DNA of 64,000 nucleotides from Promethearchaeia archaeon (GTDB lineage: Archaea; Asgardarchaeota; Lokiarchaeia; Sigyniarchaeales; SOKP01), in the NCBI GenBank assembly GCA_046483985.1, contig JAWOCD010000006.1, positions 1 to 64,000 of the forward strand, given 5' to 3'. The translations under genes and the position numbers were made by a program. This document shows positions 4,084 to 58,841 of the stretch, one piece after another; position 1 is the first letter of the stretch; each line of letters begins with the position of its first letter. The notes under the pieces are model-generated. The model saw only the letters and a list, made by a program, of their open reading frames with translations. It was not told where the DNA came from and made no database searches.

Positions 4084-5439
4084 ATGATGTTAAAAGACGA
4101 CCCTAATCGGAAAGAAGTTTGCGAGAAAGTCATTGAAACAGTAATAGAAGAGGATATCAAATTCATTTACCTCCAATTCACAGATATTCACGGGATCTTG
4201 AAATCATTTGAAATAAATTCCAAACGCATTGAAGATTTTTTAGAAGATGGAGAGAATTTTGACGGCTCTAGCATCACGGGATATGGAGCGATTGAAGAAT
4301 CCGATAAAGTCGCTCTCCCAGACCCAAGCACATTTTACATCTTGCCTTGGAGAAAAAAAAATAAAGTTGCCCGCGTTATCTGTGATATCTATAAACCCAA
4401 TGGAAATAGATTTGAAGGTGACCCACGTTATATCTTGCAAAAAGCCGTAAAAAAGGCAAAAGATCACGGATTTAAATGTTTTTGTGCTCCAGAAATGGAA
4501 TTCTTTGCCTTAGATAAAGAGGTAAAGGAGCAAGCATTTAAACCAAGTGATATGCGTGGGTATTTTGATTTTGATCCGTATGATATTAGTGAAAAAATGC
4601 GTTATACAATCGCACAATATTGTGATAAGATGGGGATTGAAATTGAAGCACTTCACCATGAAGTGGCTTACGGTCAACATGAAGTCGATTTCCAGTATGA
4701 TGAAGCCGTCAATTCTGCGGATAATACAATAACGATAAAAACCATCATAAAAATGGTAGCTGCTTCAAACGGAATGGATGCAACATTTATGCCAAAACCA
4801 TTCTCGGGTATTAATGGATCCGGTATGCATGTCCACCAGAGTTTATGGAAGGATGGAAAAAATGTATTTTATGATGAAAACGATGAGAATTTTATATCGG
4901 TAACTATGAGGAAATGGATTGCCGGACAACTGAAACATGCAAAAGCGATGGCTGCGGTACTCAGTAGCTGGCCGAACTCATATAAACGATTAGTACCTGG
5001 ATATGAAGCTCCCGTATATATAGCATGGGGATTCCGAAATCGTTCCCCGTTAATTCGTGTTCCTGACTTTCATAGAAAACCAAGTTCTGCTCGTTGCGAA
5101 ATTCGATGCCCCGATCCTGCAGGTAATCCTTACCTTCAGTTCGCTGTTCTGTTACAAGCAGGACTTGACGGAGTTCTTTCAGACGAAATAAAGATTCCAG
5201 AAGCAACGGATAAAAATGTATATCACTTCTCTACAAAGGACCTAGAAAAGGCTGGAATCGACGCTTTACCACCAAGCCTTGGAGTCGCATTAAATGAATT
5301 TAAATCTTCAGAGTTTATGAAAGAAGTTTTTGGAGAGCAAGCGTTTAAAAACTATTATTATGCAAAGCTTGAGGAAAATGACGAATATCGAGTAAATGTT
5401 TCTCAATGGGAACGCGATAGATATATAACTCGTTTATAA
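4084..5439 (+). CDS. glnA: Glutamine synthetase type I
   Basis: FDGSSI, HHEVAYGQHE, ATFMPKP..GINGSGMHVHQS, NSYKRLVPGYEAP, NRSPLIRVP, EIRCPDP. Confidence 0.97.
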   Translation: MMLKDDPNRKEVCEKVIETVIEEDIKFIYLQFTDIHGILKSFEINSKRIEDFLEDGENFDGSSITGYGAIEESDKVALPDPSTFYILPWRKKNKVARVICDIYKPNGNRFEGDPRYILQKAVKKAKDHGFKCFCAPEMEFFALDKEVKEQAFKPSDMRGYFDFDPYDISEKMRYTIAQYCDKMGIEIEALHHEVAYGQHEVDFQYDEAVNSADNTITIKTIIKMVAASNGMDATFMPKPFSGINGSGMHVHQSLWKDGKNVFYDENDENFISVTMRKWIAGQLKHAKAMAAVLSSWPNSYKRLVPGYEAPVYIAWGFRNRSPLIRVPDFHRKPSSARCEIRCPDPAGNPYLQFAVLLQAGLDGVLSDEIKIPEATDKNVYHFSTKDLEKAGIDALPPSLGVALNEFKSSEFMKEVFGEQAFKNYYYAKLEENDEYRVNVSQWERDRYITRL

Positions 5440-21501: not shown

Positions 21502-22035
21502 ATGAGTGATCAGGAAAAAAAGAAAATCGTCCTTATGGGGTTAGATAATAGCGGCAAAACTTCAATAGTTCTCAACCTAATGGATAGAGTAAACCTCTTG
21601 GATTATTTATCATTAGGTCCCACTACTGGAGCTGATGTGATGGATTTTAGTACAAAAAATAAAGAATTCAACATTTGGGATCTAGGAGGTCAGAAAACTT
21701 ATAGAATAGATTATCTTGAAAACTTGGATAAATATGTAACCGGAATCAATAAACTCATCTACGTCATCGATGTGCAAGATGTTGACAGATATGATGATGC
21801 TCTTAACTTTTTGGAAAAGATACTCAATCATCTTCACGAGAACGATTATAACCCTGATCTCAATGTTTTTATCCATAAGTACGATCCACATCTGTTCGAA
21901 GTTTGCCCTGACGTAAATAAAGAGATTATAAATAATTTAATTAAAGATATAAAAAATATTATCCTTGAGCAGTTTTACTATGAAATCTATAAAACGACAA
22001 TTTTTACAACTTTTGAAAAACGTTATGTGCATTAA
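21502..22035 (+). CDS. Arf/Rag-like small GTPase
   Basis: G1 GLDNSGKTS, G2 PTTG, G3 WDLGGQ, G4 HKYD. Confidence 0.9.
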   Translation: MSDQEKKKIVLMGLDNSGKTSIVLNLMDRVNLLDYLSLGPTTGADVMDFSTKNKEFNIWDLGGQKTYRIDYLENLDKYVTGINKLIYVIDVQDVDRYDDALNFLEKILNHLHENDYNPDLNVFIHKYDPHLFEVCPDVNKEIINNLIKDIKNIILEQFYYEIYKTTIFTTFEKRYVH

Positions 22036-22122: not shown

Positions 22123-25100
22123 TTACCAATAAATCTTTTTTAGGGACTTATGGTATTCGCTTAAGGATTTCACTGAAGGTGGTTGTTTTCTGATCTTTTC
22201 TATGGCGTTGATAATTGCTTCTGCCAAGTGTAGGTTTACAATCACCGGAATATTATAATCAACAGCCATCCTTCTGATTTCGTACTCATCCTTCATAATT
22301 TGTCTGAATTTTTCTTTCGCCGTAGTCGGCAAAGGTATATTTATTACCATGTCAATCTTTCCCTCTTGGAGGCATGCCTTAATATTTGGTTCCTTTCCGT
22401 ATTCGTGAATTTTGTATAATTTCACGGCTTCTATTCCATTATTTTCAAGCGATTTTGCCGTATCTTCAGTAGCAAAAATAGAAAATCCCAGCGAACTGAT
22501 TTTTTTCGCGACCGGTATGATCTCTTGTTTTAATTTCTTTCCCCCCACAGATATTAAAATATTTCCCCCTTCAACGGGAATATCTTGTTCAGCAGCTTGG
22601 AGTGATTTAATTAATGCGTCTGAAAGAGTATCCCCCAAACAAGCAACTTCCCCTGTACTGGCCATTTCGACTCCTAAAATTATATCTGCTTTATCCAAGC
22701 GCATAAAAGAAAACATCGGAGACTTTACGCCTACAAAGTCTCCATAAGGTAAATTCAGAATATCCTCAGGTATTTTATTACCCATAATTACCTGGGCTGC
22801 GAGTTTCATTAAATTAATTCCCCTACATTTTGAAACATAGGGCATACTTCGGCTTGAACGAAGATTACACTCAATAACGTAAACTTCTTCATTTTTTACA
22901 AGATATTGGACATTAAACGGTCCCTTAATTTTGAGCGCTAGGGCAATTTCCTTGGTATATTTCCTAATTTGCTCAATTACTTTATTAGAAACTGTATGTG
23001 GAGGGATTGTCATTGTTGCATCGCCGCTATGGACTCCCGCATTTTCAATATGCTCTACGACTGCCCCAATAAGTACATTCTCTTGGTCACTAACCCCGTC
23101 ACATTCGACTTCCCTGGCATCTCTAAAGAATTTGGTCACGACAACGGGATACTCCTTTGAAACTGCTGCTGCAAGGTCAAGGGTATCCTTAAGAGTTTCC
23201 TCATCGTAGCAGACTCTCATAGCCGCTCCACTTAATACATACGAAGGACGAACAAGTACTGGATATTCTACTTCCTTCGCGAATTCCAAGGCTTTACCCT
23301 TTTCCGTTAATGCTGCCCATCTCGGTTGTTTTATGCCAAGTTGATCTAAGAGTGTGCTGAATTTCGCTCTATCTTCAGCCATATCAATCCTTGACCCGTG
23401 TGTTCCAAGAATCTTTACATTAGTTTTTCGATAGAAATCCCGATACTTGGCAAATTTTGCCGCGAGATTTTGGGCAATTTGGCCTCCTGCCGATAGCACA
23501 ATACCCTTAGCCTTTTCTAATTCGCAAATATCTAAAACTTTCTCCCCCGAAAGTTCTTCAAAATATAATCTGTCGGAGACATCGTAGTCTGTACTCACGG
23601 TTTCTGGATTGTAATTTATAAGGATTGCCTTATCCACTCCAAGTTCTTGTAAACCCCATAAGCAATTCACAGAACCCCAATCAAATTCAACACTGGCGCC
23701 AATTCGGTAAGTGCCAGAGCCTAATACAATAACTTTATTGATATTTTGTTTATTCTCTTTTTGATAATCAATATCATGTTTACAACCCCAATAGGTCAAA
23801 TATAGATAATGTCGCTCGGGAGCACATTGTCCAGCAAGTGTATCAATTTGTTTAACATAGGGCTTAATCCCAGTTTTCTTTCTAAAGCGTCTAATTGCTG
23901 TAGTTTCCAACCCCATTATTTTTGCAATCTGCCCATCTGAAAAGCCATATCGTTTTGCTTTATGGATTAAATACTTTTTGTCACGTTTTGAAGATTTTAA
24001 GAAATTATGCTCGCGCAATTCATTCTCAATATCCACAATATTTTCCAATTTATAGAGAAACCATTTATCAATGCGGGTTCTATCGTATATTTCATCTATA
24101 GAGAGCCCTCTCTTAATAGCCTCGGCAATACGTAAAAATCGTAAGTCTGTGGGATTGCGTAGGATAAATTTTAATTCATTAATATTCTCTAATGGCTCAA
24201 CATCATTCCCAACAAACCCTTTTAACCCAATATCAAGCATCCGTAAAGCTTTTTGACATACCTCTTCAAAATTACGGCCAATACTCATACATTCCCCGAC
24301 ACTTTTCATTTGAGAGCCGATATGTCTGTCTACTTCTTCAAATTTTGTTAAGTCAAACCGCGGAAATTTTAACACCATATAATCAGTGGCGGGTTCGAAA
24401 TTAGCCGTTGTTTTAAGGGTAATCTGATTTTTCAATTCGGGTAAATCATATCCAATCGCCAATTTAGCAGCGATATAGGCCAATGGATAACCTGTTGCTT
24501 TTGAAGCAAGAGCGGATGATCGAGATAAGCGCGCATTTATTTCGATCCCCCGATATTCCTTTGAGGAAGGATCCAGTGCCCACTGAATATTACATTCTCC
24601 AACAATACCAATGCTACGAACTACTCTAAGAGAAGCAGATCGTAACATTTGTAATTCTTCATCCGTCAAGGTCTGAGCAGGTGCACAGACAATACTATCT
24701 CCCGTATGAATCCCGCAAGGGTCTATATTTTCCATGCTACAATTAATAAAGCAATTATCTTGGGCATCTCTGAGAATTTCAAATTCAATTTCTTTCCAAC
24801 CCCAAACCGATTCTTCAATTAAAATTTGATGGATTCGGGATTGAGCAAGACCACGTTTGGCCATTCGCTCGAATTGATCCCAATCACGAATAATGCCAGA
24901 TCCTTTACCCCCGAGAACATATGCAACTCGTAACATCAAGGGAAAGCCGAATTCTTCTGCCGCCTTTTTTGCTTCGACATAAGAATTCACAGCCCGACTC
25001 CGACAGACGGGTGCTTTAGCTTTATTCATTGCCTTGACAAACTGATCTCTATCTTCAGTAGCTTCAATTGCGTGAATGGGGGTTCCCAAGACTCTGAGAT

Positions 25101-25434
25101 TGTATTTGTCTAATATACCAGCCTCTTTTAATTCAACTCCTACATTTAATGCCGTTTGACCTCCAAATGATAAGCAAATCCCATCAGGCTTTTCCTTTTT
25201 AATTATATCTTCCACATAGTTTATATCGATGGGAACCAAATAGACCCGATCAGCCATTTGGGGATCAGTTTGGATGGTAGCAATATTTGGATTAACCAAA
25301 ACTGTCTCGATATCCTCTTCATTAAGAGCCTTTAACACTTGAGAACCGGAATAGTCAAATTCTCCTGCTTGCCCTATTCGGACCGCGCCAGAACCCAGTA
25401 CCATTACTTTCTTTAGTGATTTATCCAACGGCAT
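22123..25434 (-). CDS. carB: Carbamoyl-phosphate synthase large subunit (copy 2)
   Basis: IGQAGEFDYSG, GIHTGDS, IEINARLSRSSALASKATGYPLA, VRPSYVLSG, GVHSGDA, IECNLRSSRS and an MGS domain. Confidence 0.97.
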   Translation of the reverse strand: MPLDKSLKKVMVLGSGAVRIGQAGEFDYSGSQVLKALNEEDIETVLVNPNIATIQTDPQMADRVYLVPIDINYVEDIIKKEKPDGICLSFGGQTALNVGVELKEAGILDKYNLRVLGTPIHAIEATEDRDQFVKAMNKAKAPVCRSRAVNSYVEAKKAAEEFGFPLMLRVAYVLGGKGSGIIRDWDQFERMAKRGLAQSRIHQILIEESVWGWKEIEFEILRDAQDNCFINCSMENIDPCGIHTGDSIVCAPAQTLTDEELQMLRSASLRVVRSIGIVGECNIQWALDPSSKEYRGIEINARLSRSSALASKATGYPLAYIAAKLAIGYDLPELKNQITLKTTANFEPATDYMVLKFPRFDLTKFEEVDRHIGSQMKSVGECMSIGRNFEEVCQKALRMLDIGLKGFVGNDVEPLENINELKFILRNPTDLRFLRIAEAIKRGLSIDEIYDRTRIDKWFLYKLENIVDIENELREHNFLKSSKRDKKYLIHKAKRYGFSDGQIAKIMGLETTAIRRFRKKTGIKPYVKQIDTLAGQCAPERHYLYLTYWGCKHDIDYQKENKQNINKVIVLGSGTYRIGASVEFDWGSVNCLWGLQELGVDKAILINYNPETVSTDYDVSDRLYFEELSGEKVLDICELEKAKGIVLSAGGQIAQNLAAKFAKYRDFYRKTNVKILGTHGSRIDMAEDRAKFSTLLDQLGIKQPRWAALTEKGKALEFAKEVEYPVLVRPSYVLSGAAMRVCYDEETLKDTLDLAAAVSKEYPVVVTKFFRDAREVECDGVSDQENVLIGAVVEHIENAGVHSGDATMTIPPHTVSNKVIEQIRKYTKEIALALKIKGPFNVQYLVKNEEVYVIECNLRSSRSMPYVSKCRGINLMKLAAQVIMGNKIPEDILNLPYGDFVGVKSPMFSFMRLDKADIILGVEMASTGEVACLGDTLSDALIKSLQAAEQDIPVEGGNILISVGGKKLKQEIIPVAKKISSLGFSIFATEDTAKSLENNGIEAVKLYKIHEYGKEPNIKACLQEGKIDMVINIPLPTTAKEKFRQIMKDEYEIRRMAVDYNIPVIVNLHLAEAIINAIEKIRKQPPSVKSLSEYHKSLKKIYW

Positions 25435-26573
25435 TATTTTTTCACCTCCAGAAAGTCTAAAAATTTGTCAAATATCAGTTTTCTCATGTCTAATGCTCCA
25501 GGTGAAGCTTCAGGATTAAAATTAACCCCAAATATGGGTTTTTCCTCGTGAATAATTCCTTCATTGGATTCATCATCCTTATCATGAAAAAATCCAGTAA
25601 ATTCATTGATATCTCCTTGCTCTAAACAGTAATCATGATTTTGAAAGGTAATATAACACTGACCCGTTGCGGTTTCAACCGTAGTCCTTCCGCCTCTATG
25701 CTCAGCGGTCATTTTATACACTTTTCCGCCAGCAGCCAATCCGAGAACACTAGTTCCCAATCCGATTCCCATGGTTGGAAATGATTCTTTAATCAACTGG
25801 TTCGCTAATTCAATAGGACTTTCATAGATTGAAGGGTTCCCAGGACCATTCGGAAATATAATTCCATCGGGCTGGAGTTCCATAATTTTCTTGTAATTAT
25901 AGAGGTAAGGTACCACAATCACATCCAAATTCCTTGATAACAAGGTGCGAATGATATTATTTTTGATTCCTAGATCAAGGATAACTACTTTTCCACGTGG
26001 ATCCTTGACTTTATATTTGATCTTGTCATCCGTAGAAACTCTTTTTACTAAATTCTCATCCAGATTTAATGATTTGTCTTGAATCTCTTGTTTCAGTTTT
26101 TCAAGGTCAAGATCTTGTCCAGATTCAGCAACATTAATTAATCCAAACATACTTTCCTCTTGTACAAGACGTTGTGTAATCACTCGAGTATCAACCCACT
26201 GAATTCCGGGAATATCCTCTTCGATTAGCCAATCTTCTAATGTTTTTATAGATTCATAGTGACTGGGTTTGTCGCAGTATTCATTAACAATTATTCCCGC
26301 TGGATGGATCTCTTGAGATTCAAATTGTTCAATAATTCCGAATTCATCCTTTTTTTTGGCGGGAACCCCGTAATTTCCAATAGAGGGATAGGTAAAGTTT
26401 ACCATTTTTCCTTGAAACGCAGGATCTGTAAGTGACTCAATGTATCCAGCACCGGGGATGCTACAGAACGTAAGTTCCCCCGATACTTTTTTAGTTGAAC
26501 CAAAACCGATACCTTCAAACACAGTTCCATCTTGAAGCACAAGAACTGCTGGCCTTTCATTCTTATATATCAT
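25434..26573 (-). CDS. carA: Carbamoyl-phosphate synthase small subunit homolog lacking the catalytic Cys and His (copy 2)
   Basis: LTDP, TYPSIGNYG, NGPGNP and QNH are present. The nucleophile elbow reads GIGLG and FHPE reads FNPE. Confidence 0.92.
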   Translation of the reverse strand: MIYKNERPAVLVLQDGTVFEGIGFGSTKKVSGELTFCSIPGAGYIESLTDPAFQGKMVNFTYPSIGNYGVPAKKKDEFGIIEQFESQEIHPAGIIVNEYCDKPSHYESIKTLEDWLIEEDIPGIQWVDTRVITQRLVQEESMFGLINVAESGQDLDLEKLKQEIQDKSLNLDENLVKRVSTDDKIKYKVKDPRGKVVILDLGIKNNIIRTLLSRNLDVIVVPYLYNYKKIMELQPDGIIFPNGPGNPSIYESPIELANQLIKESFPTMGIGLGTSVLGLAAGGKVYKMTAEHRGGRTTVETATGQCYITFQNHDYCLEQGDINEFTGFFHDKDDESNEGIIHEEKPIFGVNFNPEASPGALDMRKLIFDKFLDFLEVKK

Positions 26574-26720: not shown

Positions 26721-27440
26721 ATGAGAATTAGAGAAAAGAAGTGTATCGGTTGCGGTCAATGTGCAATTGTTTGCCCTGTGGGAGCAATAGAAATAAAGAA
26801 TGAAAAGGCAGTAATTGATGATAATTTATGCGTAGAGTGTTCCGTTTGTTATCGAGATGCAAATTGTCCCACCAGTGCAATCCGACCTTCCCGACTAAAA
26901 TGGCCAAGAGTAGTCAGAAATCCATTCAGCGATGTGATTTCGACCCATAAATTAACGGGGGTTCCTGGGAGAGGTACAGAGGAAATGAAAACAAATGATG
27001 TGAGTCATCGGTTTAAGCTTGGAGAAGTAGGATTCTCCATTGAAATCGGTAGACCGGGTGTAAGTACGGTATTAAAAAATGTAAATTTATTTACCGAAAG
27101 ATTAACTCCTTTAGGTGTTATCTATGAGGAGGCAAGTCCGGTTACTGTATTGCTTAACGAAGAAGAAACTAAGATTAAAGAAGATATCGAGGAGGAGAAA
27201 GTACTTTCTGTCATAATCGAATTTAAGGTCCCAAGGGAAAAACTTGAGGAGGTCTTAAAAATAATCGAAGAAGTGGATCAAGAGATCGATACCGTGTTTA
27301 CAGTGGGAGTAATATCTACCTTTGAGGACAACGATCATCTCCCAATACTTGAAGAGATTCAAGATTTGGGGTTTTCAGTAAGACCAAATGCAAAAATTAA
27401 TGTGGGACTCGGGAGAGATTTAATGGAGGAGGAAGCCTAA
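26721..27440 (+). CDS. 2x[4Fe-4S] ferredoxin-domain protein with an uncharacterised C-terminal domain
   Basis: CIGCGQCAIVCP and CVECSVC...CP motifs, followed by TGVPGRGTEEMKTNDV. Confidence 0.85.
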   Translation: MRIREKKCIGCGQCAIVCPVGAIEIKNEKAVIDDNLCVECSVCYRDANCPTSAIRPSRLKWPRVVRNPFSDVISTHKLTGVPGRGTEEMKTNDVSHRFKLGEVGFSIEIGRPGVSTVLKNVNLFTERLTPLGVIYEEASPVTVLLNEEETKIKEDIEEEKVLSVIIEFKVPREKLEEVLKIIEEVDQEIDTVFTVGVISTFEDNDHLPILEEIQDLGFSVRPNAKINVGLGRDLMEEEA

Positions 27441-28022
27441 ATGACGCATTCATTACATCGGACGGGAGCAAAATCACAATTAAAAAACGATTATGTGATA
27501 TTAACCATGTTAGCTGCGGGTTACAACGATAAAGCCCTTGATTCGCGGGAACGACTCATTAGCATTGCAAAAATCATGAAAAATCACAATCCCGTCAATA
27601 TTATGACAAAACGAGCTTGGACTGTATCAACAGTTATCTCTGCAGCATATGATGATAAAGAAGTGGTGAAAGATGTAGTTAATGAGATTAAAGAAGCAGA
27701 CCTTGGCATCTCAATCGTTGTCGAAGGGATAATTGATGAAGTTAGAGAGATCGCAAATGAAATTGGATTAAATCTTAATTCGGCTCATCTTTCACTTGGT
27801 ACGTTTGGTAAAAAAGAACTTCTCCCGTCAGAAAAGGTACTGGAAATCACAAGCATGTGCGGACATCACTGTATTTCTCCCCAATCGGTCTTGCATTATG
27901 TTGATCTCATAAAAAATGATAAGATTAGCGTCGAAAAGGCAGCTGAAAAGATTGCAGAGCCGTGTATCTGTGGGATCTTTAATACGGAAAGAGCAAAAGA
28001 AACTCTAAAGAAATTAAAATAA
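27441..28022 (+). CDS. Hypothetical protein with His/Cys motifs, coupled to the upstream Fe-S gene
   Basis: MTHSLHR N-terminus, MCGHHC and PCICGIFN. Starts 1 bp after the previous stop. Confidence 0.8.
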   Translation: MTHSLHRTGAKSQLKNDYVILTMLAAGYNDKALDSRERLISIAKIMKNHNPVNIMTKRAWTVSTVISAAYDDKEVVKDVVNEIKEADLGISIVVEGIIDEVREIANEIGLNLNSAHLSLGTFGKKELLPSEKVLEITSMCGHHCISPQSVLHYVDLIKNDKISVEKAAEKIAEPCICGIFNTERAKETLKKLK

Positions 28023-28230: not shown

Positions 28231-31200
28231 TTACCAATAAATCTTTTTCAGAGTATCATGATATTCATTCAGAGATTTAATTGTAAGACCATTTGTCCTT
28301 ATATTTTCAATAGCATCTATAACCGCTTTTGCTAATTGCAAGTTTATTATAACGGGAATGTTATAATCGACAGCCATCCGCCGAATTTTGTATTCATCTT
28401 TCATAATCTGTTTAAATTTTTCTTCAGCGGTGGTAGGTAATGGTATATTAACGACCATATCAATTTTCCCCTCTTGAAGGCAACGCATAATATTCGGTTC
28501 CTTTCCATGTTCATGGACCTTATAAAGTCGAACAGCTTCAATTCCGCCTTCCCGTAATGCAATTGCGGTATCTTCAGTGGCAAAGATTGTAAAGCCCAAT
28601 TTCTTAATCCTTTTAGCGATTGGCAAAATTTCCCTTTTTAATTTCTCTCCTCCTACAGAGATTAATATATTTCCTCCTTCAACTGGAATATGCATATCAG
28701 CGGCTTGAAGAGATTTAATCAACGCATCGGGAAAAGTATCCCCCATCGCAGCGACTTCGCCTGTAGAGGCCATTTCCACACCCAGAATAGGATCTGCATT
28801 ATCTAATCGCATAAAGGAAAACATCGGAGACTTAATCGACACATAATCTCCTTGTGGTAAATCCATTATATCTTCTGGAATTAAGTTCCCCATAAATATT
28901 TCAGCTGCCAAACGCATTAAATTAATTCCTCGGGATTTGGAAACATAGGGCATACTTCGACTCGATCGCAAATTACATTCTATTACATATACGGAATCAT
29001 TTTTAACTAAATATTGCAAATTAAATGGCCCACGAATTTTCAGGGCAAGGGCAATTTGACGCGTATAATCTCGTATCTTTTCTATTACAGGATCAGAAAT
29101 CGTTTGAGGGGGAATTGACATTGTTGCATCTCCACTATGTACTCCAGCATTTTCGATATGTTCAACGATTGCTCCAATGAATACTTTCCGTCCATCACAC
29201 ACACCATCACACTCTACTTCCCGAGCATCTGTAAAAAACTTAGTCATTACCACAGGATATTCTTGAGATACGGAGGCTGCTAAATCCAAAGTATCTGTGA
29301 GGGTTTTTTCATCATAACATACTCGCATGGCTGCCCCACTTAATACATAGGACGGACGAACCAGAACGGGATAATTTACCTTATCCGCGAATTTCAAGGC
29401 TTCTTTCTTGGTGGTTAGTGCCTTCCATTGAGGCTGCTTTATATCCAATTGATCTAATAAAGAACTGAATTTACTTCTATCTTCTGCCATATCAATTCTT
29501 GTTCCATGAGTTCCTAAGATATTCAAACCCGCTTTTCCAAAAAACTCAGAATACTTTACAAACTTAGATGCCAAATTATTTGCAATCTGTCCTCCAACTG
29601 AGACCACTATACCATAGGGATTCTCAAGATCGCAGATATCGACTACCCGTTCACCCGAAAGTTCCTCAAAATAAAGTTTATCACTAATATCATAGTCAGT
29701 AGACACGGTTTCGGGATTATAATTAATAATAATGGCTTGATCAACATCTTGTTCCTTTAACCCCCATAAACAGTTTACGGAACCCCAGTCGAATTCCACA
29801 CTGGCACCGATTCGATAGGTCCCACTTCCTAACACAATGATTTTCTTTAGATTTTCTTCTTGTTCCTTTTCATAATTTATATCATGCTCGGAGGCTGAAT
29901 AGGTTAAATATAGATAATTCGTCTTGGCAGGCCATTCTGCTGCTAGAGTATCGATTTGTTTTACAAAAGGACGGATCTGGCATTTTTTCCGGCGGGTACT
30001 TCGTACCGTAATAGTGTCCACATTCATTATGTTCGCAATTTGTCCGTCAGAAAATCCAAACCTTTTTGCTCTTGTAAGCCAATACTTCAATTCTTCCGTT
30101 TCATCTTTAAGGATATTGACATTTTTTAGTTCTTCTTCAATTTCGATAATATGCTTTAATTTATATAAGAACCATTTATCTATCCGGGATAATTCATAAA
30201 TTTCATCAATAGATAGGCCTCTTTTCATAGCCTCCGCTAAGCGAAACACGCGAAAATCAGTGGGGTTACGTAATTCATATTTCAGTTCATTGATATCTTC
30301 AATCGGTTCTAAATCATTTCCTACAAATCCCTTCATTCCGATATCAAGCATGCGAATTGCCTTTTGAATTACTTCCTCAAAAGTTCTACCAATTGACATA
30401 ACTTCACCCACAGATTTCATCTGAGAACCAATGTGGCGATCTACTTTCTCAAACTTGGTTAAATCCCAACGCGGGATCTTTAGGACCAGATAATCCAATG
30501 CAGGTTCAAAGCATGCGGTGGTTACTTTTGTTATTTTGTTTTTTAATTCGTATAAATTATAGCCGATAGCCAACTTGGCCGCGATAAAAGCTAAGGGGTA
30601 TCCAGTCGCTTTTGATGCAAGCGCAGATGAACGTGAAAGACGAGCATTGACTTCGATTACTCGAAATTCTTTGGATTTTGGATGAAGAGCATACTGAATA
30701 TTACACTCTCCAATGATACCTAAACTTCGAATCACGCGAATGGATGCAGAACGGAGCATATGATATTCTTCATTAGTCAATGTTTGACTAGGCGCGATCA
30801 CGATACTTTCTCCCGTGTGGATTCCTACGGGATCAAAATTTTCCATATTACAATTAATAAAACAATTATCTTCTGCATCGCGAACAACTTCATACTCCAC
30901 TTCTTTCCACCCCCACACGGATTCTTCGATTAATATCTGATGTATACGGGACTGTGCGAGTCCTTTTTTGGCCATACGCTTGAAATCTTCCATATTTCGT
31001 ATAATTCCAGAGCCTCTACCCCCTAAGGTATAGGCAACTCGTAGCATTAAAGGAAACCCAAACTCTTCAGCAGCTTTTAAAGCGTTTTGATATGAAGTAA
31101 CAGCCTTACTTTTGCATACTGGTGCTCTTGCCCGATGCATTGCTTGAACAAATTCATCTCTGTCCTCAGTAGCTTGAATTGCCTCAATTGGGGTTCCAAG

Positions 31201-31545
31201 TACGCGTACATCATATTTTTCCAATATCCCATTTTCCTTTAACTCTACACCTACATTAAGAGCAGTTTGACCTCCAAATGCTAAAAGAATGCCATCTGGT
31301 CTTTCTTTTTTAATTACTTCTTCAACATATTTCAGAGTGAGAGGAAGTAGATATACCCGATCCGAAAGCTGAGGATCTGTTTGGATGGTGGCTACATTCG
31401 GATTAATTAAAATCGTTTCTATTCCCTCTTCCTCCAATGCTTTCAAGACTTGTGAACCGGAGTAATCAAACTCTCCCGCTTGACCAATACGAATTCCGCC
31501 CGAACCCAGAACTAATGCCTTTTTAATACTTGTATCCAAGGGCAT
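28231..31545 (-). CDS. carB: Carbamoyl-phosphate synthase large subunit (copy 1)
   Basis: All CarB ATP-grasp motifs present, plus KQIDTLAAEWPAKTNYLYLTY. Confidence 0.97.
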   Translation of the reverse strand: MPLDTSIKKALVLGSGGIRIGQAGEFDYSGSQVLKALEEEGIETILINPNVATIQTDPQLSDRVYLLPLTLKYVEEVIKKERPDGILLAFGGQTALNVGVELKENGILEKYDVRVLGTPIEAIQATEDRDEFVQAMHRARAPVCKSKAVTSYQNALKAAEEFGFPLMLRVAYTLGGRGSGIIRNMEDFKRMAKKGLAQSRIHQILIEESVWGWKEVEYEVVRDAEDNCFINCNMENFDPVGIHTGESIVIAPSQTLTNEEYHMLRSASIRVIRSLGIIGECNIQYALHPKSKEFRVIEVNARLSRSSALASKATGYPLAFIAAKLAIGYNLYELKNKITKVTTACFEPALDYLVLKIPRWDLTKFEKVDRHIGSQMKSVGEVMSIGRTFEEVIQKAIRMLDIGMKGFVGNDLEPIEDINELKYELRNPTDFRVFRLAEAMKRGLSIDEIYELSRIDKWFLYKLKHIIEIEEELKNVNILKDETEELKYWLTRAKRFGFSDGQIANIMNVDTITVRSTRRKKCQIRPFVKQIDTLAAEWPAKTNYLYLTYSASEHDINYEKEQEENLKKIIVLGSGTYRIGASVEFDWGSVNCLWGLKEQDVDQAIIINYNPETVSTDYDISDKLYFEELSGERVVDICDLENPYGIVVSVGGQIANNLASKFVKYSEFFGKAGLNILGTHGTRIDMAEDRSKFSSLLDQLDIKQPQWKALTTKKEALKFADKVNYPVLVRPSYVLSGAAMRVCYDEKTLTDTLDLAASVSQEYPVVMTKFFTDAREVECDGVCDGRKVFIGAIVEHIENAGVHSGDATMSIPPQTISDPVIEKIRDYTRQIALALKIRGPFNLQYLVKNDSVYVIECNLRSSRSMPYVSKSRGINLMRLAAEIFMGNLIPEDIMDLPQGDYVSIKSPMFSFMRLDNADPILGVEMASTGEVAAMGDTFPDALIKSLQAADMHIPVEGGNILISVGGEKLKREILPIAKRIKKLGFTIFATEDTAIALREGGIEAVRLYKVHEHGKEPNIMRCLQEGKIDMVVNIPLPTTAEEKFKQIMKDEYKIRRMAVDYNIPVIINLQLAKAVIDAIENIRTNGLTIKSLNEYHDTLKKIYW

Positions 31546-31547
31546 CT

Positions 31548-32684
31548 TTATTTAACCTCCATCAATTCTAAAAATTTATCAAATAGATATAGATTATCTA
31601 AGGGTCCCGGCGATGCTTCTGGATGGAATTGAACCGCAAGCAGCGGTTTGGTCTTATGTATTAAGCCCTCATTTGATTCATCATCGATATTTTTGAGAAA
31701 TTCCCGGAATCCTCCTTTTTCAAAATCTCTTACACAGAAGCCATGATTTTGGGATGTAATATAACATTCATTGGTATCTATATTAATGACAGTCTTATTC
31801 CCCCCTCGATGTCCGTATTTTAACTTGTAAGATTCTCCCCCTGCCGCCAGTCCAATGATTTGGTTGCCCAAACAAATTCCAAAAGTTGGAATTTCATTTG
31901 CGATTAATTCTTTGCATACTTGAATCGCGTTCGAATATATAGCGGGATCTCCAGGACCATTAGAAATAAACACTCCATCAGGATTACAGGACATAATCTG
32001 CTCGTAACTATAATTATAGGGAACTAAAATAACCTTAATACCCCGTTTGACAAAGTTCCGTAAAATATTATATTTTACGCCTAAATCCAATACAACAACA
32101 GTTCCTCGCGGATTCGGAGGACTAAATATCTTTACTTCTTTAGTAGATACTTCGCTTGCCAAATGCCGTTTATTGGGATCTTCTGATTCAGCGACAATTT
32201 TCTTTAGATTTTCGATATCGGGAGTTTCACCTTCCTCATATACTGCCAATAGAGCCACTTGGACGCCTTCTTCTCGTAAAATCTTGGTCACTGCCCGGGT
32301 ATCAATCCATTCAATCCCCGGAATATCTTGTTCTTTAAGAAATTCATCCAAGGTCTTCACACTTTGGTAATGGTGAGGATGTTTACAGCATTCATTAACA
32401 ACAAATCCAGAAACTTTAATAGAGTCTGATTCGAAATATTTTGTGATACCATATTGGTCTTTCTCCCATGGAGGGACTCCATAATTTCCAACCAAGGGAT
32501 GGGTCATACATACAATTTGTCCTTGATAAGAGGGATCGGTGAGTGTCTCATTATATCCCGCGCCCGTAATTGTGTTGAACACCAGTTCCCCAGTTATAAT
32601 TTTAGTAGCACCAAAACCAATACCTTCAAAATATCGACCATCTTTCAGCATTAGAATAGCAGGTTTTTCATTTTTATAAAGCAT
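31548..32684 (-). CDS. carA: Carbamoyl-phosphate synthase small subunit, glutamine-hydrolysing (copy 1)
   Basis: Intact SNGPGDP, GICLG, TSQNHGF and QFHPE. Confidence 0.97.
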   Translation of the reverse strand: MLYKNEKPAILMLKDGRYFEGIGFGATKIITGELVFNTITGAGYNETLTDPSYQGQIVCMTHPLVGNYGVPPWEKDQYGITKYFESDSIKVSGFVVNECCKHPHHYQSVKTLDEFLKEQDIPGIEWIDTRAVTKILREEGVQVALLAVYEEGETPDIENLKKIVAESEDPNKRHLASEVSTKEVKIFSPPNPRGTVVVLDLGVKYNILRNFVKRGIKVILVPYNYSYEQIMSCNPDGVFISNGPGDPAIYSNAIQVCKELIANEIPTFGICLGNQIIGLAAGGESYKLKYGHRGGNKTVINIDTNECYITSQNHGFCVRDFEKGGFREFLKNIDDESNEGLIHKTKPLLAVQFHPEASPGPLDNLYLFDKFLELMEVK

Positions 32685-32753: not shown

Positions 32754-32855
32754 AAGACAACTAATATTTTTTTCTAAATCCCTTTATGATATCTCTTGTA
32801 GATAAGACAACAAATATTTTTTTCTAAATCCCTTTATGATATCTCTTGTAGATAA
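32754..32855. repeat. 50-bp tandem duplication upstream of carA copy 1
   Basis: 32754-32803 and 32804-32853 are identical except for one T/A mismatch. Confidence 0.95.
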
Positions 32856-33296: not shown

Positions 33297-35006
33297 TCAA
33301 TCTTTATTCTTGAAGTTAATGCTCTCTTTTAAGAAAGCTCTGTATACTGGATGAGGATCCCATGGACGATTTTTGAACTCGGGGTGGAATTGAGTGCCAA
33401 GCATAAAATGATCTGGTCTATTTAATTCGATACTGTTAACAATAGTTCCTTCTGTATTCATGCTGGAGATAACCAGCAAATCTCCTTCTGGCTTTCCCTC
33501 TAAATATTGAGGTTGGATATGATATCGATGTCTAAATCGTTCTGTAATTTTTTCTTTGCCATATGCCTTATATAGTTTGGTTCCTTTTTCAATTGAGATT
33601 TCAATTCCTCCTAAACGCATGGTACCTCCCTTTTCTGTTATATCTTTTTGCGATTCCAATAGATCCACCACCGGATAAGGAGTGTCTGGGTCAATTTCAG
33701 TGGAATTAGCATTCTTTAACCCTAAAATCTCTCTACAGAATGCTATATAGAATAATTGCGCTCCAAAACAGATCCCCAAAAAGGGAATTTTGTTTTTTAT
33801 GGCATATATGGCAGATTCAATCATTCCCTCTACGGCTCTTTCACCAAACCCAGGCGTTAAGAGTATTCCGTCGCAGTCAGCTAATTGTTGTTCAACATTT
33901 GTATTGGGAGTTATATTTATCATTTTTAAATTGGCTTCATAGCCTTCATGGGCCGCAGCATGCTCTAATGCATCATTAATGGAAATATAGGAGTCTGAAA
34001 TATTAAAATATTTCCCAGGCATTCCGATTCTCACGGACTTTTTAGGACCCTTAAACAAGTCAACAGTCTTTTTCCACTCAGAATAGTTATTTACTTTACT
34101 GTAGGATACTAATTTGGCCCGTAAATCAAGTTTTTCGCATAATAAGTCTCCCAATTTCTGTTCTTCGAATAAAAGCGGTAATTCATAGATGCATTCGAGA
34201 TCGGGATTGGAAACCACTGCAGATTCGGGAACATTCGAAAAAAGGGATATTTTTGACTTAATATCGGATTCCAAGGGTTCTTCGCTTCTTCCGATAATAA
34301 TATCTGGTTGTAAACCAGCACTTTGCAGCATTTTTACGGAATGCTGGGTGGGTTTTGATTTTTGTTGTCCTACGGCCTTGGAATACGGTACTAATGTGAC
34401 ATGTACAAATGCCGTGTTATGTTTAGGACGTTCTAACCGAATTTGGCGGAAAGCCTCCAAGAAAATACTAGATTCTAAGTCACCGACGGTTCCCCCACAT
34501 TCGACAAGTAAAACGTCCAATTCTTCATTATCTGCAATTTCAATTAGGCGGTTTCTAATCATATTCGTGCAGTGTGGAATAATCTGAACAGTTCTGCCGA
34601 GAAATTTCCCTTTTCGTTCTCTAAGAATGGTAGATAAATATATCTGGCCACTAGTAATATTATGGCTAGGGTGAATAGTTATACCAAGAAAACGCTCATA
34701 GGTGCCGAAATCTTGGTCAATTTCACTAATACGATACACCCGTTCTTCTGATGCGGTATCTTCGGACTCGGACACAGCGGAAGGAACTGGCTTAAAATCC
34801 CATACTTCTTCGGTAATAAAACACTCTCCGTGCTCAATAGGATTAAGAGTCCCGGGATCCACATTTAAATAAGGATCTATTTTCACGACCGAAACATTAA
34901 AACCGCGAAATTGAAGAATCTTTCCTAAACTTGCCGTTACAACGCCTTTTCCAATGCCAGACATGACTCCGCCGGTTACGAACACAAATTTACTATTCTG
35001 AGCCAT
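33297..35006 (-). CDS. pyrG: CTP synthase
   Basis: FVTGGVMSGIGKG, KIDPYLNVDPGT, GGTVGDLES, KPTQHSV, GICFG, ERFRHRY, QFHPEF. Confidence 0.97.
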   Translation of the reverse strand: MAQNSKFVFVTGGVMSGIGKGVVTASLGKILQFRGFNVSVVKIDPYLNVDPGTLNPIEHGECFITEEVWDFKPVPSAVSESEDTASEERVYRISEIDQDFGTYERFLGITIHPSHNITSGQIYLSTILRERKGKFLGRTVQIIPHCTNMIRNRLIEIADNEELDVLLVECGGTVGDLESSIFLEAFRQIRLERPKHNTAFVHVTLVPYSKAVGQQKSKPTQHSVKMLQSAGLQPDIIIGRSEEPLESDIKSKISLFSNVPESAVVSNPDLECIYELPLLFEEQKLGDLLCEKLDLRAKLVSYSKVNNYSEWKKTVDLFKGPKKSVRIGMPGKYFNISDSYISINDALEHAAAHEGYEANLKMINITPNTNVEQQLADCDGILLTPGFGERAVEGMIESAIYAIKNKIPFLGICFGAQLFYIAFCREILGLKNANSTEIDPDTPYPVVDLLESQKDITEKGGTMRLGGIEISIEKGTKLYKAYGKEKITERFRHRYHIQPQYLEGKPEGDLLVISSMNTEGTIVNSIELNRPDHFMLGTQFHPEFKNRPWDPHPVYRAFLKESINFKNKD

Positions 35007-39117: not shown

Positions 39118-39666
39118 CTATGCTGTCTCTACATTTTCTCGTTCTTGTATCCGCTCCAGTGTGAGTTTAGTAAGCAGATCAAATGATTTATTCACATTTA
39201 TATTCTCTTTTGAAGATATTTCTGAGAATGCAGCAAAATCATGCTTTTCACTAATTTGGATACCTAGCTCACGGGGAACCTCTCGTTGATTTTCGGCTAA
39301 ATCTAATTTTGCACCAATTAACATAATTGGTATATCTCCGCCCTTGGAACGAACAATATTTGCCCATTTAGGAATATTATCTAAAGTTGATGATCGGGTA
39401 ATATCATATAATAAGAAAGCCGCATTTGCGCCTAACACATATGTAGGGAGAAGAAACCTAAATCGCTCTTCTCCTCCTATATCCCAAATTTGAAGCTTTA
39501 TTTTTAGATCATCAACTATATTAACACGAACATGAAAATCTACTCCAATAGTAAGCTTTTCGCCAGGATTAAAAACTTGGTAAACATAACGTTTGGTAAA
39601 ACTGGTTTTACCCACACTTGCATCACCAAGTAAAAGTACTTTTAGAGTATAATCGTAGTTTGGCAT
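39118..39666 (-). CDS. Rab-like small GTPase
   Basis: YDYTLKVLLLGDASVGKTS, TIGVDF, KLQIWDIGGEERF, LYDIT, GAKLD, EISSK. No C-terminal Cys. Confidence 0.93.
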   Translation of the reverse strand: MPNYDYTLKVLLLGDASVGKTSFTKRYVYQVFNPGEKLTIGVDFHVRVNIVDDLKIKLQIWDIGGEERFRFLLPTYVLGANAAFLLYDITRSSTLDNIPKWANIVRSKGGDIPIMLIGAKLDLAENQREVPRELGIQISEKHDFAAFSEISSKENINVNKSFDLLTKLTLERIQERENVETA

Positions 39667-56703: not shown

Positions 56704-58841
56704 CTTAACTTCCAAAGTAATTAAATTTAATCATGAAAAATATTAAACTTTTTCCTTCTCTTCTTGTTTTCCTACACATTTAGACGTGTCTTGGACCCAG
56801 AAATGTCCATATTCCATTCTTTTATTCCGTCATGATTTTGTCGCTTTGTGGCTGTAGGCTTAAAACTCTCCTTTGTAGGATGAAGTAATTCTTATTTCTT
56901 CCTCAATCTAAAGAAGTTTAAGATCCTAAGACTTATATATAGGTTAGTCCTACATTTATACATGAAATACTTTTTACACAAAAACAGGACAAAATATGGA
57001 ATTTACTACTCTTACCGGCATAATTACAGGGAAGGAGATAAAGTAAAGACCAAGTCGGTTTATTTAGGAAACGAAAAAACCGCTTTAGAGATATTATCTG
57101 ATTTTAATTCGGAAAAGCCCCAAAATGAGCGCCTTTTGTCTTATTCGGGCGAGTTAATCCTCTCCAGGGTGCTTGAATTGCTTAACTTTCGGAAGGTGTT
57201 GGATGAAACAAGTGAGGCAGAGGCGGAATGGGAGATCGGACGCTTCCTCGAGATGGTCGTCGTCGAGCGCGTCTTGAATGCGTATAGCAAGTGGCGACTG
57301 GCAAGGGTAGCCCACAGCAAGTCATTTTATTCGCTGGATAAGAACATCCCCGCCGAGAAATTCACGGAAGATAACATCTACAATTATATGGATTACATCC
57401 ATCCGGGGCTCGACTTGATGAAGGAAAAACTCGTGAAAAACTTGCTTGAGCTGAATTTCGTGGAATTAGACGAGTTAATCTTGGATGGGACCTCGTTGTA
57501 CTGTTTCAGTTCCGATGAGGAGGATGAGGTGCTTGAACCCGGAGAAAGCCCCGAAGAATCGTCGGAGCCGCTGAGGCGGACGCACGGCTACAGCCGCGAC
57601 CATCGCCCGGATCTCCCGCAGATCAACTTGATGCTGGGCGTGAGTAATCAGTATCTGCCGCTATTGTTCGAAACCTTTTCGGGGAATGTTCCCGATGTGG
57701 TCATGTTTGAAAAGGTCCTTGAGAAGTGTCAAGATACCTATCAAGCCCTTTTAAAACGCGTACGGAATAAGTACGTGGTGTTTGACAAGGGAAATAATAG
57801 CAAAGACAATTTCAAGGGCTTGGATGAGCTCTGTACTCGGTGGGGGTTCCACTTTGTTACCAGCGTCCGTCCCAGTATGACCAAGATCAAGAATGCCCTG
57901 AAACCCCTCAACGTGGAGGACTTGCCGGTCATTTATAAGCAGCGAAGGACTACCTTGAGAGGAAAAACGGTAATGTTAGAGTTGTATGGAGAAAAGAGGA
58001 GGGCATTGCTGTACGTGAATGAAGAGATAAGGGAAAAGAAGCGGCAAGCGTATATGGAAAAACTGAACGGAATCCAAGAGGAAATCAGGAAAATCAACCA
58101 AGAGAAAAAGAGTGTAAAGGAGAAATCGGAATTGGTGGAAGATTTACTCCGAAAAAACCGAGTATTGACCTATTTCAAGCAAGAAGAAGATGGGGGGGAG
58201 ATCCATTGTGTGCCCATCGACTCGAAGGTTGCGGACAAGATGGGCTTGTTCGGGAAATTTGCCTTGATCACGGACGATTTCACGCTGGATGCGGAGGATA
58301 TGGCCCGCATCTATAAGAGGTCCATCGTGGTGGAGCACGAATTTCACCTTTTAAAGAGCTTGCTCTCCATTCGCCCCTTCAATCATCGGAAGCCCGAAAG
58401 GATCGACGTCCACGTGGCGATAGTGCTGTGGGGGATCATGGCGCTGGCACTCTTGAGGGTGATGCTCGACGACCACGGTATGGAGCTTAGCTTTGAGCGA
58501 TTAAGGGAATTGATCGGGGACGGCTGCATTTCCATCGGGGATTACTTGTATCCTGAGCGCAAGTCCTTTCGGATCAAGCGAACGTTGAATATCCATTCTG
58601 AACTCCAAGAAATCTTGAACGTCCTAAACTTAGAATGGGATTACTTTGATATCGATGTTATACCTACGGTTGAGGAAAAAAAGGACGGGGGAAAATGACC
58701 TCGAGGTGGTTTTGAGGAAATAAAATAAAGTAGGGTCGGAAAACCAATTATCTCCATCTATCGATGATGGAAATTGGCTTGGGATATTGCCAAGAGTCTG
58801 AACTCTAAACAAGAAAATATTTACCCACTTTGGAAGTTAAG
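56704..58841 (+). mobile_element. IS1634-family insertion sequence (2138 bp)
   Basis: 15-bp perfect TIR CTTAACTTCCAAAGT (56704-56718 / 58827-58841). 6-bp TSD TTTAAA (56698-56703, 58842-58847). Confidence 0.93.
56962..58698 (+). CDS. IS1634 family DDE transposase
   Basis: LDGTS, HGYSRDHRPDLPQI, GNVPD, VFDKG, YKRSIVVEHEFHLLK, RPFNH. Visibly GC-richer than the host genes. Confidence 0.93.
   Translation: MKYFLHKNRTKYGIYYSYRHNYREGDKVKTKSVYLGNEKTALEILSDFNSEKPQNERLLSYSGELILSRVLELLNFRKVLDETSEAEAEWEIGRFLEMVVVERVLNAYSKWRLARVAHSKSFYSLDKNIPAEKFTEDNIYNYMDYIHPGLDLMKEKLVKNLLELNFVELDELILDGTSLYCFSSDEEDEVLEPGESPEESSEPLRRTHGYSRDHRPDLPQINLMLGVSNQYLPLLFETFSGNVPDVVMFEKVLEKCQDTYQALLKRVRNKYVVFDKGNNSKDNFKGLDELCTRWGFHFVTSVRPSMTKIKNALKPLNVEDLPVIYKQRRTTLRGKTVMLELYGEKRRALLYVNEEIREKKRQAYMEKLNGIQEEIRKINQEKKSVKEKSELVEDLLRKNRVLTYFKQEEDGGEIHCVPIDSKVADKMGLFGKFALITDDFTLDAEDMARIYKRSIVVEHEFHLLKSLLSIRPFNHRKPERIDVHVAIVLWGIMALALLRVMLDDHGMELSFERLRELIGDGCISIGDYLYPERKSFRIKRTLNIHSELQEILNVLNLEWDYFDIDVIPTVEEKKDGGK

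Follow-up and report, generated by a model that had tools for sequence, protein, structure and literature searches.

The window, a stretch of 64,000 nucleotides from a Promethearchaeia archaeon (contig JAWOCD010000006.1), carries two carbamoyl-phosphate synthetase (CPS) operons, and the second of these, carA2-carB2, appears likely from its sequence to encode a CPS that runs on ammonia and retains a pseudo-glutaminase subunit in a structural role; arginine synthesis is the probable reason for the pair's retention. An ammonia-fed enzyme is the most likely reading because the small subunit is glutaminase-dead, yet strongly conserved, and replaces the normal enzyme in some relatives. The pair would have arisen by tandem duplication of carAB within one Lokiarchaeia family, and its two-subunit CPS would take free ammonia instead of glutamine. 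CarA2 may have been retained as a folded partner docked on CarB2, where it would stabilize the bicarbonate-phosphorylating domain and shape the ammonia entry route, while CarB2, with its residues intact, would carry out the usual sequence from carboxyphosphate through carbamate to carbamoyl phosphate. The relevant genes are as follows.

22123..25434, minus strand: carB2, dedicated large subunit with intact catalytic residues, in its own clade (B2), 1103 aa
25434..26573, minus strand: carA2, CPS small subunit of full length (379 aa), a pseudo-enzyme whose glutaminase site is dead
28231..31545, minus strand: carB1, large subunit partnering carA1 in the glutamine-type pair; identity to carB2 75%
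31548..32684, minus strand: carA1, small subunit with an intact glutaminase, the sister paralog of carA2 (49% identity)
33297..35006, minus strand: pyrG (CTP synthase), upstream of carA1, a recurring neighbor of the live operon
26721..28022, plus strand: Fe-S gene pair between the two operons, probably a local insertion outside the system
4084..5439, plus strand: glnA (glutamine synthetase), which many relatives also carry on their carAB contig

CarA2 has both the sequence and the fold of a CPS small chain: it scores 340.5 bits on TIGR01368 (cut-off 307.35), and its predicted model (pLDDT 91.7) matches E. coli CarA (1JDB) with a TM of 0.90. The first-pass annotation had described an intact 379-aa frame overlapping the carB start, GIGLG and FNPE motifs in this copy, and an intact triad in the nearby CarA1. 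All of this is borne out, with a 1-base overlap of the carA2 stop and the carB2 ATG (TAATG, at 25434) and a complete CarA1 triad (Cys271, His354, Glu356). The main substitutions in CarA2, with their state in the 104 proteins of the glutaminase-dead clade, are these.

25761..25763, minus strand: Gly271 (GGA, in GIGLG), replacing the nucleophile Cys (E. coli Cys269); Gly in 104/104
25515..25517, minus strand: Asn353 (AAT, in FNPE), replacing the triad His (E. coli His353); Asn in 104/104
25749..25751, minus strand: Ser275, where E. coli has the glutamine-binding Gln273; no member of the clade has Gln
25644..25646, minus strand: Phe310, replacing a small residue (E. coli Ala309), and an inferred candidate pocket filler; Phe or Tyr in 99/104

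Of the Cys-His-Glu triad, only Glu355 is left in CarA2, and every one of the 104 proteins lacks both Cys and His. The glutamine-site residues (Ser47, Gln273, Gln351, Gly313/Phe314) are likewise not preserved as a set. Further changes in CarA2, in E. coli numbering, are Gln351 to Asn, Ser47 to Ala, deletion of Asn294, Ser35 to Pro and Pro360 to Ala; we take Pro360 to be a small-subunit tunnel residue and have kept it out of the evidence. Across the clade Ser47 has become Thr or Ala, position 273 is variable and Gln351 is mostly Ala. Changes beyond Cys and His, such as those at Gln273, Ala309 and Gln351, had been missed in the first reading. Neither chance nor sequencing error accounts for the replacements: Cys-to-Gly requires two base changes relative to the paralog codon (TGT versus GGA), relatives use every one of the four Gly codons and either Asn codon at the two sites, and both changes are shared by the whole clade. 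Cys269 and His353 are indispensable for glutamine hydrolysis (PMC6245113). By sequence and established chemistry, a glutamyl thioester cannot form on CarA2, and the protein probably no longer binds glutamine.

A survey of CarA lacking Cys and His, as proposed in the first-pass annotation, covered 135 genomes of one Lokiarchaeia family and located dead carA in 18 of them, from 8 genera. Named homologs of CarA2 belong to Promethearchaeota/Lokiarchaeota, and both Cys and His are kept in all 210 complete outgroup CarA sequences. Could the pair be a decaying duplicate, or a complex with a function other than carbamoyl-phosphate synthesis? Most genomes of the family are without it, and across genera carA2 dN is about 1.8 times that of carA1. 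However, the dead-clade proteins are 365-406 aa long with no broken frames seen, CarB2 is constrained to the same degree as CarB1 with both kinase sites intact, and dN/dS stands at about 0.1-0.2 in carA2 and at 0.03-0.06 in carB2, with dS near saturation in most pairs. The values for the window against close relatives are 0.09-0.10 for carA2 and 0.025-0.028 for carB2; in genus g11 they are 0.095-0.119 for dead versus 0.054-0.126 for live carA, and 0.045-0.063 for carB2 versus 0.058-0.073 for live-type carB. Purifying selection on both genes is supported, and decay or another function is hardly credible. The suspicion that the substitutions are strain-specific and under relaxed selection fails, given their presence in the whole clade and a dN/dS near 0.1. 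The proposed old duplication into glutamine-type and glutaminase-dead pairs, the view of CarA2 as a structural pseudo-enzyme subunit and the intact synthetase are likewise supported.

CarB2 is a CarB by sequence (1412 bits on TIGR01369, cut-off 1027). As expected from the earlier report of both ATP-grasp motif sets, the ATP, K+, gate and carbamate-tunnel residues that were checked are all retained in both halves, and the listed catalytic, gate and tunnel residues are identical in 10 B2 and 17 B1 sequences. The ammonia-gate residues C232/A251/A314, as defined in PMC8674909 and PMC4655335, are present. What distinguishes CarB2 is a set of 38 diagnostic sites, all within residues 10-552, of which 12 fall at the predicted small-subunit interface versus 3.7 expected; for CarA2, the corresponding figure is 11 of 35 diagnostic sites versus 5.0 expected. 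One of these regions is the following loop.

23821..23832, minus strand: carB2 loop 535-538, GQCA (AEWP in carB1), specific to the clade and located where the small subunit is predicted to dock

CarA2 and CarB2 are therefore predicted to have changed together at their interface. The modeled complex scored 0.90 (best control 0.00; partner pLDDT 90), on a test whose mark was reached by 58 of 80 solved pairs and 2 of 110 mismatched pairs, although CarA-CarB is a textbook pair that the model may already have learned; repeat runs had at least 89% of contacts in common. Perhaps CarB2 works instead with the live CarA1, and CarA2 is an inhibitory competitor or passenger. The two large subunits are indeed similar enough to invite such mixing, and 14 of the 18 genomes with dead carA hold both pairs, mostly in tandem. 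Yet the interface changes are joint, carB2 always lies directly 3' of carA2, and four genomes have no live carA that could be found, with both genes constrained in the three measured; subunit mixing is thus very improbable.

If ammonia is the substrate, it needs a way in. For CPS1, an external ammonia path with entrance residues Glu82 and His142 has been proposed (PMC4655335), and these align with CarA2 Glu46 (97/104) and His105 (104/104); neither is diagnostic, because live CarA keeps both too. E. coli CPS requires very high ammonia (PMC6245113), and no residue found in CarA2-CarB2 proves a lower Km. A tentative proposal, less likely than not, is that the pair forms an NAG-independent prokaryotic CPS with high ammonia affinity: paired changes in CarA2 and in the bicarbonate-phosphorylating half of CarB2 would shut off glutamine and bring the Km for external ammonia down to a CPS I-like level, sufficient to replace the glutamine enzyme, with the old active site possibly turned into a regulatory pocket. 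A related idea is that the defunct pocket now binds a regulatory ligand, such as an amino acid or a nitrogen signal, and that CarA2 thereby gates CarB2, itself still fed by ammonia, instead of serving as a scaffold alone. Conservation of the old active site is non-random (Gly271, Asn353, Arg296, His292, His313 and the GPG oxyanion loop do not vary among the 104 proteins, and Phe/Tyr310 hardly does), and since the CarB2 allosteric domain has no paralog-specific change, separate control of this CPS would need another site. The packing of a closed pocket also predicts fixed Gly, Asn and aromatic residues, however, and positions 275 and 314 vary freely, unlike a specific binding site. Such a regulatory site, which would extend the ammonia-CPS explanation with the same chemistry, is on balance unlikely.

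Alternatively, another enzyme (an amidase or glutaminase) might channel ammonia to the pair, or some other donor might be hydrolyzed without Cys. Cytosolic ammonia may be low, with no match to the transporter Amt in genome G000; the genome has further class I glutaminases (weak tblastn matches); and the uncharacterized Fe-S gene pair between the operons is also found in the window's closest relatives. On the other side, the invariant Gly leaves no alternative nucleophile at the elbow, and the recurring neighbors of carA2 among relatives are carB2 and the live operon only. The 193-aa member of the Fe-S pair is encoded apart from CPS, on different contigs, in G016, G019, G196 and G208 and has no match in seven two-copy genomes; without linkage beyond the closest relatives, the Fe-S pair was rejected as a nitrogen supplier. 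Another nitrogen source is, all told, improbable, somewhat more so than a regulatory pocket, and direct use of free ammonia remains the preferred reading.

The argG gene was found in 13 of 13 verified two-copy genomes versus 4 of 29 single-copy genomes, although kin are not independent and the link largely tracks genus boundaries; it is absent from all four genomes with only the dead pair. G000 carries OTC, AOTC, argG and LysW-type genes, and no arg genes are adjacent to carA2-carB2. The second CPS copy may well be kept where arginine synthesis adds demand; genomes that have lost arginine synthesis retain a single CPS, of either type. Other metabolic explanations did not hold up. Loss of glutamine synthetase as the cause of dead CarA was rejected, the enzyme being found in 45 of 47 genomes, including the three dead-only ones tested. 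Amt matches (6 of 10 two-copy, 1 of 25 live-only and 0 of 3 dead-only genomes) are not decisive, because Amt presence tracks genus. A urea cycle was rejected, since neither an arginase over the cut-off nor a urease match was found in five genomes; the same five gave no convincing match to arginine deiminase.

The dead pair is the only CPS found in G196, G208, G302 and G336, which are 92-99% complete and have no match to live carA. In the first three it occupies the position taken by the live operon in sister genomes, and at one replaced locus a recombination junction is visible: G302 and the live-type G339 are about 85-99% identical (with one 69% window) until about 190 nt into carA, and 60-79% identical thereafter. 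The argument from a sole CPS falls short of essentiality, because OTC and carbamate kinase are present in the three dead-only genomes tested and carbamoyl phosphate can be obtained from arginine in archaea (PMC13260591). Certain relatives with 99% completeness lack any match to carA.

A literature search, which covered few subscription journals, found no description of a glutaminase-dead prokaryotic CarA. In reviews, the nitrogen donor of bacterial-type CarAB under physiological conditions is glutamine (PMC6245113), and all CPS but CPS1 are said to use it (PMC4655335). If the reading is correct, nature has switched CPS from glutamine to ammonia a further, independent time, in a two-subunit enzyme. 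Because a glutamine-type sister lies adjacent, with a CarB 75% identical, the 38 plus 35 fixed sites would make a short list for determinants of ammonia affinity, which are hard to dissect in vertebrate CPS I/III. The annotation of CarA2-type proteins, currently labeled glutamine-hydrolyzing, would be corrected, as would models of Lokiarchaeia nitrogen metabolism, since direct ammonia use would spare the ATP of glutamine synthetase.

The closest functional parallel is CPS I (human CPS1, EC 6.3.4.16; PDB 5DOT/5DOU/6UEL), in which an inactive glutaminase-like part is also kept whole with its nucleophile Cys replaced. Both have lost Gln273, have GPGNP in place of GPGDP, conserve the ammonia gate and have a probable link to arginine synthesis. 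The position of the lost nucleophile holds Ser in CPS I and Gly in CarA2, however, the His is kept in CPS1 (FHPE) and lost in CarA2, and CPS I is a single fused chain whereas CarA2-CarB2 are two subunits with a stop codon between them. The full NAG pocket (Trp1410, Asn1449, Gln1368, Thr1391, Thr1394, Asn1437) is not found in CarB2, where Lys1008 aligns with Trp1410 and Glu1050 with Asn1449; the Thr/Thr/Asn residues are kept, yet likewise in E. coli and CarB1. With key pocket residues absent, NAG activation was rejected. In the CarA and CarB trees with eukaryotic CPS that the first-pass annotation had suggested, the dead clade is nested among Loki CarA, and eukaryotic CPS groups with Bacteroidota and other prokaryotes. 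AU tests rejected a grouping of the dead clade with CPS I/III-type sequences (p 4e-12) and of Loki with eukaryotes (p 4e-05), the CarB tree being concordant, and trees and tests together rejected the dead clade as ancestor of eukaryotic CPS I. The high PDB score of CarA2 to human CPS1 reflects a broad subfamily in common; identities of 43-47% to most eukaryotic CPS matches are reached by the live CarA1 as well. The earlier parallel with the CPS I/CPS II split thus stands as convergence, and falls as kinship and for the NAG pocket. CarA2-CarB2 is convergent with CPS I and of independent origin, so the parallel has no bearing on the origin of eukaryotic CPS I, nor, since eukaryotic CPS is not sister to the Loki lineage in these trees, on eukaryote origins.

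CarA2-CarB2 shares its fold, operon layout and large-subunit chemistry with E. coli CPS (CarAB; TIGR01368/TIGR01369; EC 6.3.5.5), and databases label it glutamine-hydrolyzing because it passes both HMM cut-offs; it differs in lacking the catalytic triad and glutamine-binding residues and in an interface remodeled on both subunits. E. coli CarA mutants provide direct counterparts, C269S in PDB 1C30 and H353N in 1A9X, the latter being the same His-to-Asn change as in CarA2. The E. coli C269G and C269S mutants have lost glutamine use and retained ammonia-dependent synthesis. Unlike these laboratory mutants, the changes in CarA2 are natural and clade-fixed, and come together with the 38 fixed substitutions in CarB. 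Dual CPS systems (Bacillus subtilis CarAB/PyrAA-AB and fungal CPS-A/CPS-P) likewise have two paralogous CPS, and here too one pair lies beside a pyrimidine gene (pyrG) and the second co-occurs with argG. Both B. subtilis enzymes use glutamine. So do fungal CPS-A and CPS-P (PMC6022934). In contrast to those systems, the copies here are mostly in tandem, and the second pair lies outside any arg operon. The 41-kDa CPS of M. smithii, the carbamate-kinase-like CPS of Pyrococcus and ArcE/ArcB of Thermococcus are other archaeal ammonia routes, and these too yield carbamoyl phosphate with no glutaminase subunit involved (PMC6022934, PMC13260591). In these routes CarA is absent or the fold is another, whereas the Lokiarchaeia system has a full CarA-CarB pair with a pseudo-enzyme subunit.

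Downstream of pyrG, the minus strand of the window carries two carAB operons, and these two pairs are the only copies of carA and carB in the genome (97% complete). Below, carA1/carB1 is called the live (glutamine-type) pair and carA2/carB2 the dead pair, a carbamoyl-phosphate synthetase (CPS) with a glutaminase-dead small subunit. The relevant features are as follows:

31548-32684, minus strand: carA1, class I triad Cys271-His354-Glu356 present
25434-26573, minus strand: carA2, 379 amino acids, 49% identity to CarA1
25761-25763, minus strand: GGA, Gly271 of CarA2, at the position of CarA1 Cys271
25515-25517, minus strand: AAT, Asn353 of CarA2, at the position of CarA1 His354
26721-28022, plus strand: a 2x[4Fe-4S] protein of 239 aa, then a 193-aa protein that is rich in Cys and His and has no Pfam match
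21502-22035, 39118-39666 and 56962-58698: two small Ras/Arf/Rag-like GTPases (Asgard-typical) and a DDE transposase

The first-pass annotation had described an intact Cys-His-Glu triad in CarA1, Cys-to-Gly and His-to-Asn changes in CarA2, and a full-length CarA2 overlapping the start of its carB. All of these are borne out, the carA2 and carB2 reading frames sharing one base. CarA2 is further substituted at Ser35, Ser47, Gln273, Ala309, Gln351 and Pro360, and Asn294 is deleted (E. coli numbering). Glutamine hydrolysis requires Cys269 and His353 of CarA (PMC6245113), and from this established chemistry and the CarA2 sequence it follows that glutaminase activity has been lost. The predicted fold is intact (pLDDT 91.7; TM 0.90 against E. 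coli CarA). Just upstream of carA1, at 32754-32853, lie two 50-bp head-to-tail copies (98% identical), possibly a duplication in the promoter region. Of 61 family genomes, 27 encode the 193-aa protein (55-69% identity), and only in the closest relatives does its gene lie between the CPS operons. These relatives also carry a heliorhodopsin gene after carB1 (L187:3501-4343, L189:3346-4212), which the window lacks.

The substitutions are not strain-specific. A protein search gave a dead clade of 104 clusters, including that of the window, every one of which carries Gly in place of the Cys and Asn in place of the His, and none of which has Gln273; Cys and His are kept in all 210 complete CarA and fused CPS sequences of an outgroup from other archaea, bacteria and eukaryotes. 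Among the 135 genomes of one Lokiarchaeia family, 107 have a carA match and 18 a full-length dead copy (motifs verified in 18/18), spread over 8 of the 13 genera, and no member of the clade turned up in the other sampled Asgard families. Every dead carA directly precedes its own carB, and these carB genes form one clade. In genus g9 the live carA and carB are separated by inserted opposite-strand genes (398 and 166 aa; L041 in G019 C56, L046 in G008 C37). In a phylum survey at E 1e-50, CarA matches were nearly absent from several large Asgard families (0/76, 0/28, 0/19), suggesting that these have other carbamoyl-phosphate routes or a distant CarA type.

Both dead genes are under selection by simple Nei-Gojobori estimates. 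Median dN/dS across genera was about 0.21 for carA2, 0.09 for carA1, 0.06 for carB2 and 0.07 for carB1, with dS close to saturation, and the apparent relaxation of carA2 is no longer seen in closer pairs. Within genus g11, dead carA gave 0.095-0.119 versus 0.054-0.126 for live carA, and carB2 0.045-0.063 versus 0.058-0.073 for carB1; between the window and its closest relatives the values were 0.09-0.10 (carA2) and 0.025-0.028 (carB2).

The first-pass annotation had seen both ATP-grasp motif sets in CarB2; of the ATP, K+, carbamate-tunnel and gate residues (C232, A251, A314) checked, CarB2 retains every one, the gate being defined from PMC8674909 and PMC4655335. The 38 sites diagnostic of CarB2 versus CarB1 all lie within residues 10-552, leaving the carbamate kinase half and the allosteric domain free of them. 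A predicted complex of CarB2(1-560) with CarA2 scored 0.90 (best control 0.00), a score reached by 58/80 solved and 2/110 mismatched pairs; at least 89% of contacts were common to the runs and partner pLDDT was 90. CarA and CarB being a textbook pair, a pass of this model indicates likeness, not binding. Of the 38 CarB2 diagnostic sites, 12 fall on the predicted interface against 3.7 expected (p 9e-5), and for CarA2 the figure is 11 of 35 against 5.0 expected (p 0.005); these p values overstate the enrichment because the sites are non-independent. The modelled pattern suggests that CarA2 and CarB2 have been re-fitted to one another.

Could CarB2 simply borrow the live CarA? The dead pair is the sole carA and carB found in G196 (92% complete), G208 (99%), G302 (93%) and G336 (97%), and in the three such loci examined it is flanked by the genes that surround the live operon in sister genomes. 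G302 and live-type G339 share about 85-99% identity (one window at 69%) upstream and through the first ~190 bases of carA, beyond which identity drops to 60-79%; the N-terminus of G302 CarA is live-type. The shared neighbours and this junction therefore indicate that the live operon was replaced in place and is not just unassembled, the route being tandem-array collapse or homologous exchange. In dead-only genomes carB2 is still constrained although no glutaminase CarA was found; this speaks for an enzyme that works by itself rather than for subunit mixing. This argument is qualified by the presence of OTC and carbamate kinase in all three dead-only genomes tested, by the arginine route to carbamoyl phosphate in archaea (PMC13260591), and by some near-complete relatives in which no carA is seen.

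The distribution of argG, which mostly tracks genera, points to a role for the second CPS. In the first genome set argG was present in 10/10 two-copy, 4/25 live-only and 0/3 dead-only genomes; of the additional genomes, two-copy G327, G330 and G331 have it and dead-only G336 does not. Within genus g8, two-copy G327 has argG, whereas the three other genomes tested lack argG and have no more than one CPS. Carbamate kinase runs opposite (1/10 two-copy versus 22/25 live-only genomes). Possession of two CPS thus accompanies arginine synthesis. G000, apparently the window's own genome, encodes ATCase, argG, an ordinary OTC and LysW-type genes and, away from the last two, the following:

L177:6410-7441 (G000 C116): N-acetylornithine carbamoyltransferase, above the NCBIfam cut-off

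A similar third transcarbamylase class is present in 8 of 10 two-copy genomes. The live operon is often downstream of pyrG. We infer that arginine synthesis is more likely served by the dead pair than by the live one, although no arg gene adjoins the dead pair. In genus g5, G004 (99% complete) and G024 (92%) match neither carA nor carbamate kinase, but both possess argG and transcarbamylases. Matches to carA, carB and carbamate kinase are likewise missing from G010 and G020 (99% complete). In G003, G004, G036 and G327 the N-terminal argG match holds one or two stops each and spans a longer stretch, which may reflect an insertion or a frame artefact. In G036 only, an ammonium transporter gene (C6:143059-144273) lies ~4 kb downstream of carB2.

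Judged from sequence, the dead pair is probably an ammonia-dependent CPS: glutaminase chemistry is absent, synthetase residues are intact, both genes are selected, the interface has co-changed and the live operon has been replaced. A variant of this reading in which the dead site is a regulatory pocket seems rather improbable. As an ammonia-dependent enzyme, CarB2 would draw NH3 from the cytosol, and CarA2 would stabilise the bicarbonate-phosphorylating domain and shape ammonia entry. E. coli CPS variants with the glutamine tunnel blocked or perforated are still active on outside ammonia, and in human CPS1 the proposed outside ammonia path begins at Glu82/His142 (PMC4655335). These residues align with CarA2 Glu46 (kept in 97/104) and His105 (104/104), both conserved in live CarA as well.

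The first-pass annotation had drawn a parallel with the urea-cycle enzyme CPS I, and here likeness in working and kinship must be separated. The CarA tree places the dead clade and live Loki CarA as sister groups (98/90) within the family (99/96), and in it eukaryotic CPS clusters with Bacteroidota and other prokaryotes; the CarB tree is concordant. In both trees the fused eukaryotic CPS falls with Bacteroidota, Thermoplasmatota, DPANN and CPR, not with Loki or Jordarchaeia CarAB. Grouping the dead clade with CPS I/III-type sequences was rejected (AU topology test, p 4e-12), as was grouping Loki CarA with eukaryotes (AU p 4e-05), for a eukaryotic set of invertebrate, fish and protist sequences, all Cys-bearing; human CPS1 was compared by alignment only. 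The genomes examined show no sign of a urea cycle, and we found no publication describing a glutaminase-dead prokaryotic CarA, literature coverage being incomplete. The dead pair most likely works like CPS I, yet is not a member of it: it consists of two chains and, like the glutamine-type paralog, has Lys and Glu at the positions of the N-acetylglutamate residues Trp1410 and Asn1449. The dead pair is a real finding whose chemistry has precedent; the link to eukaryotes fails.
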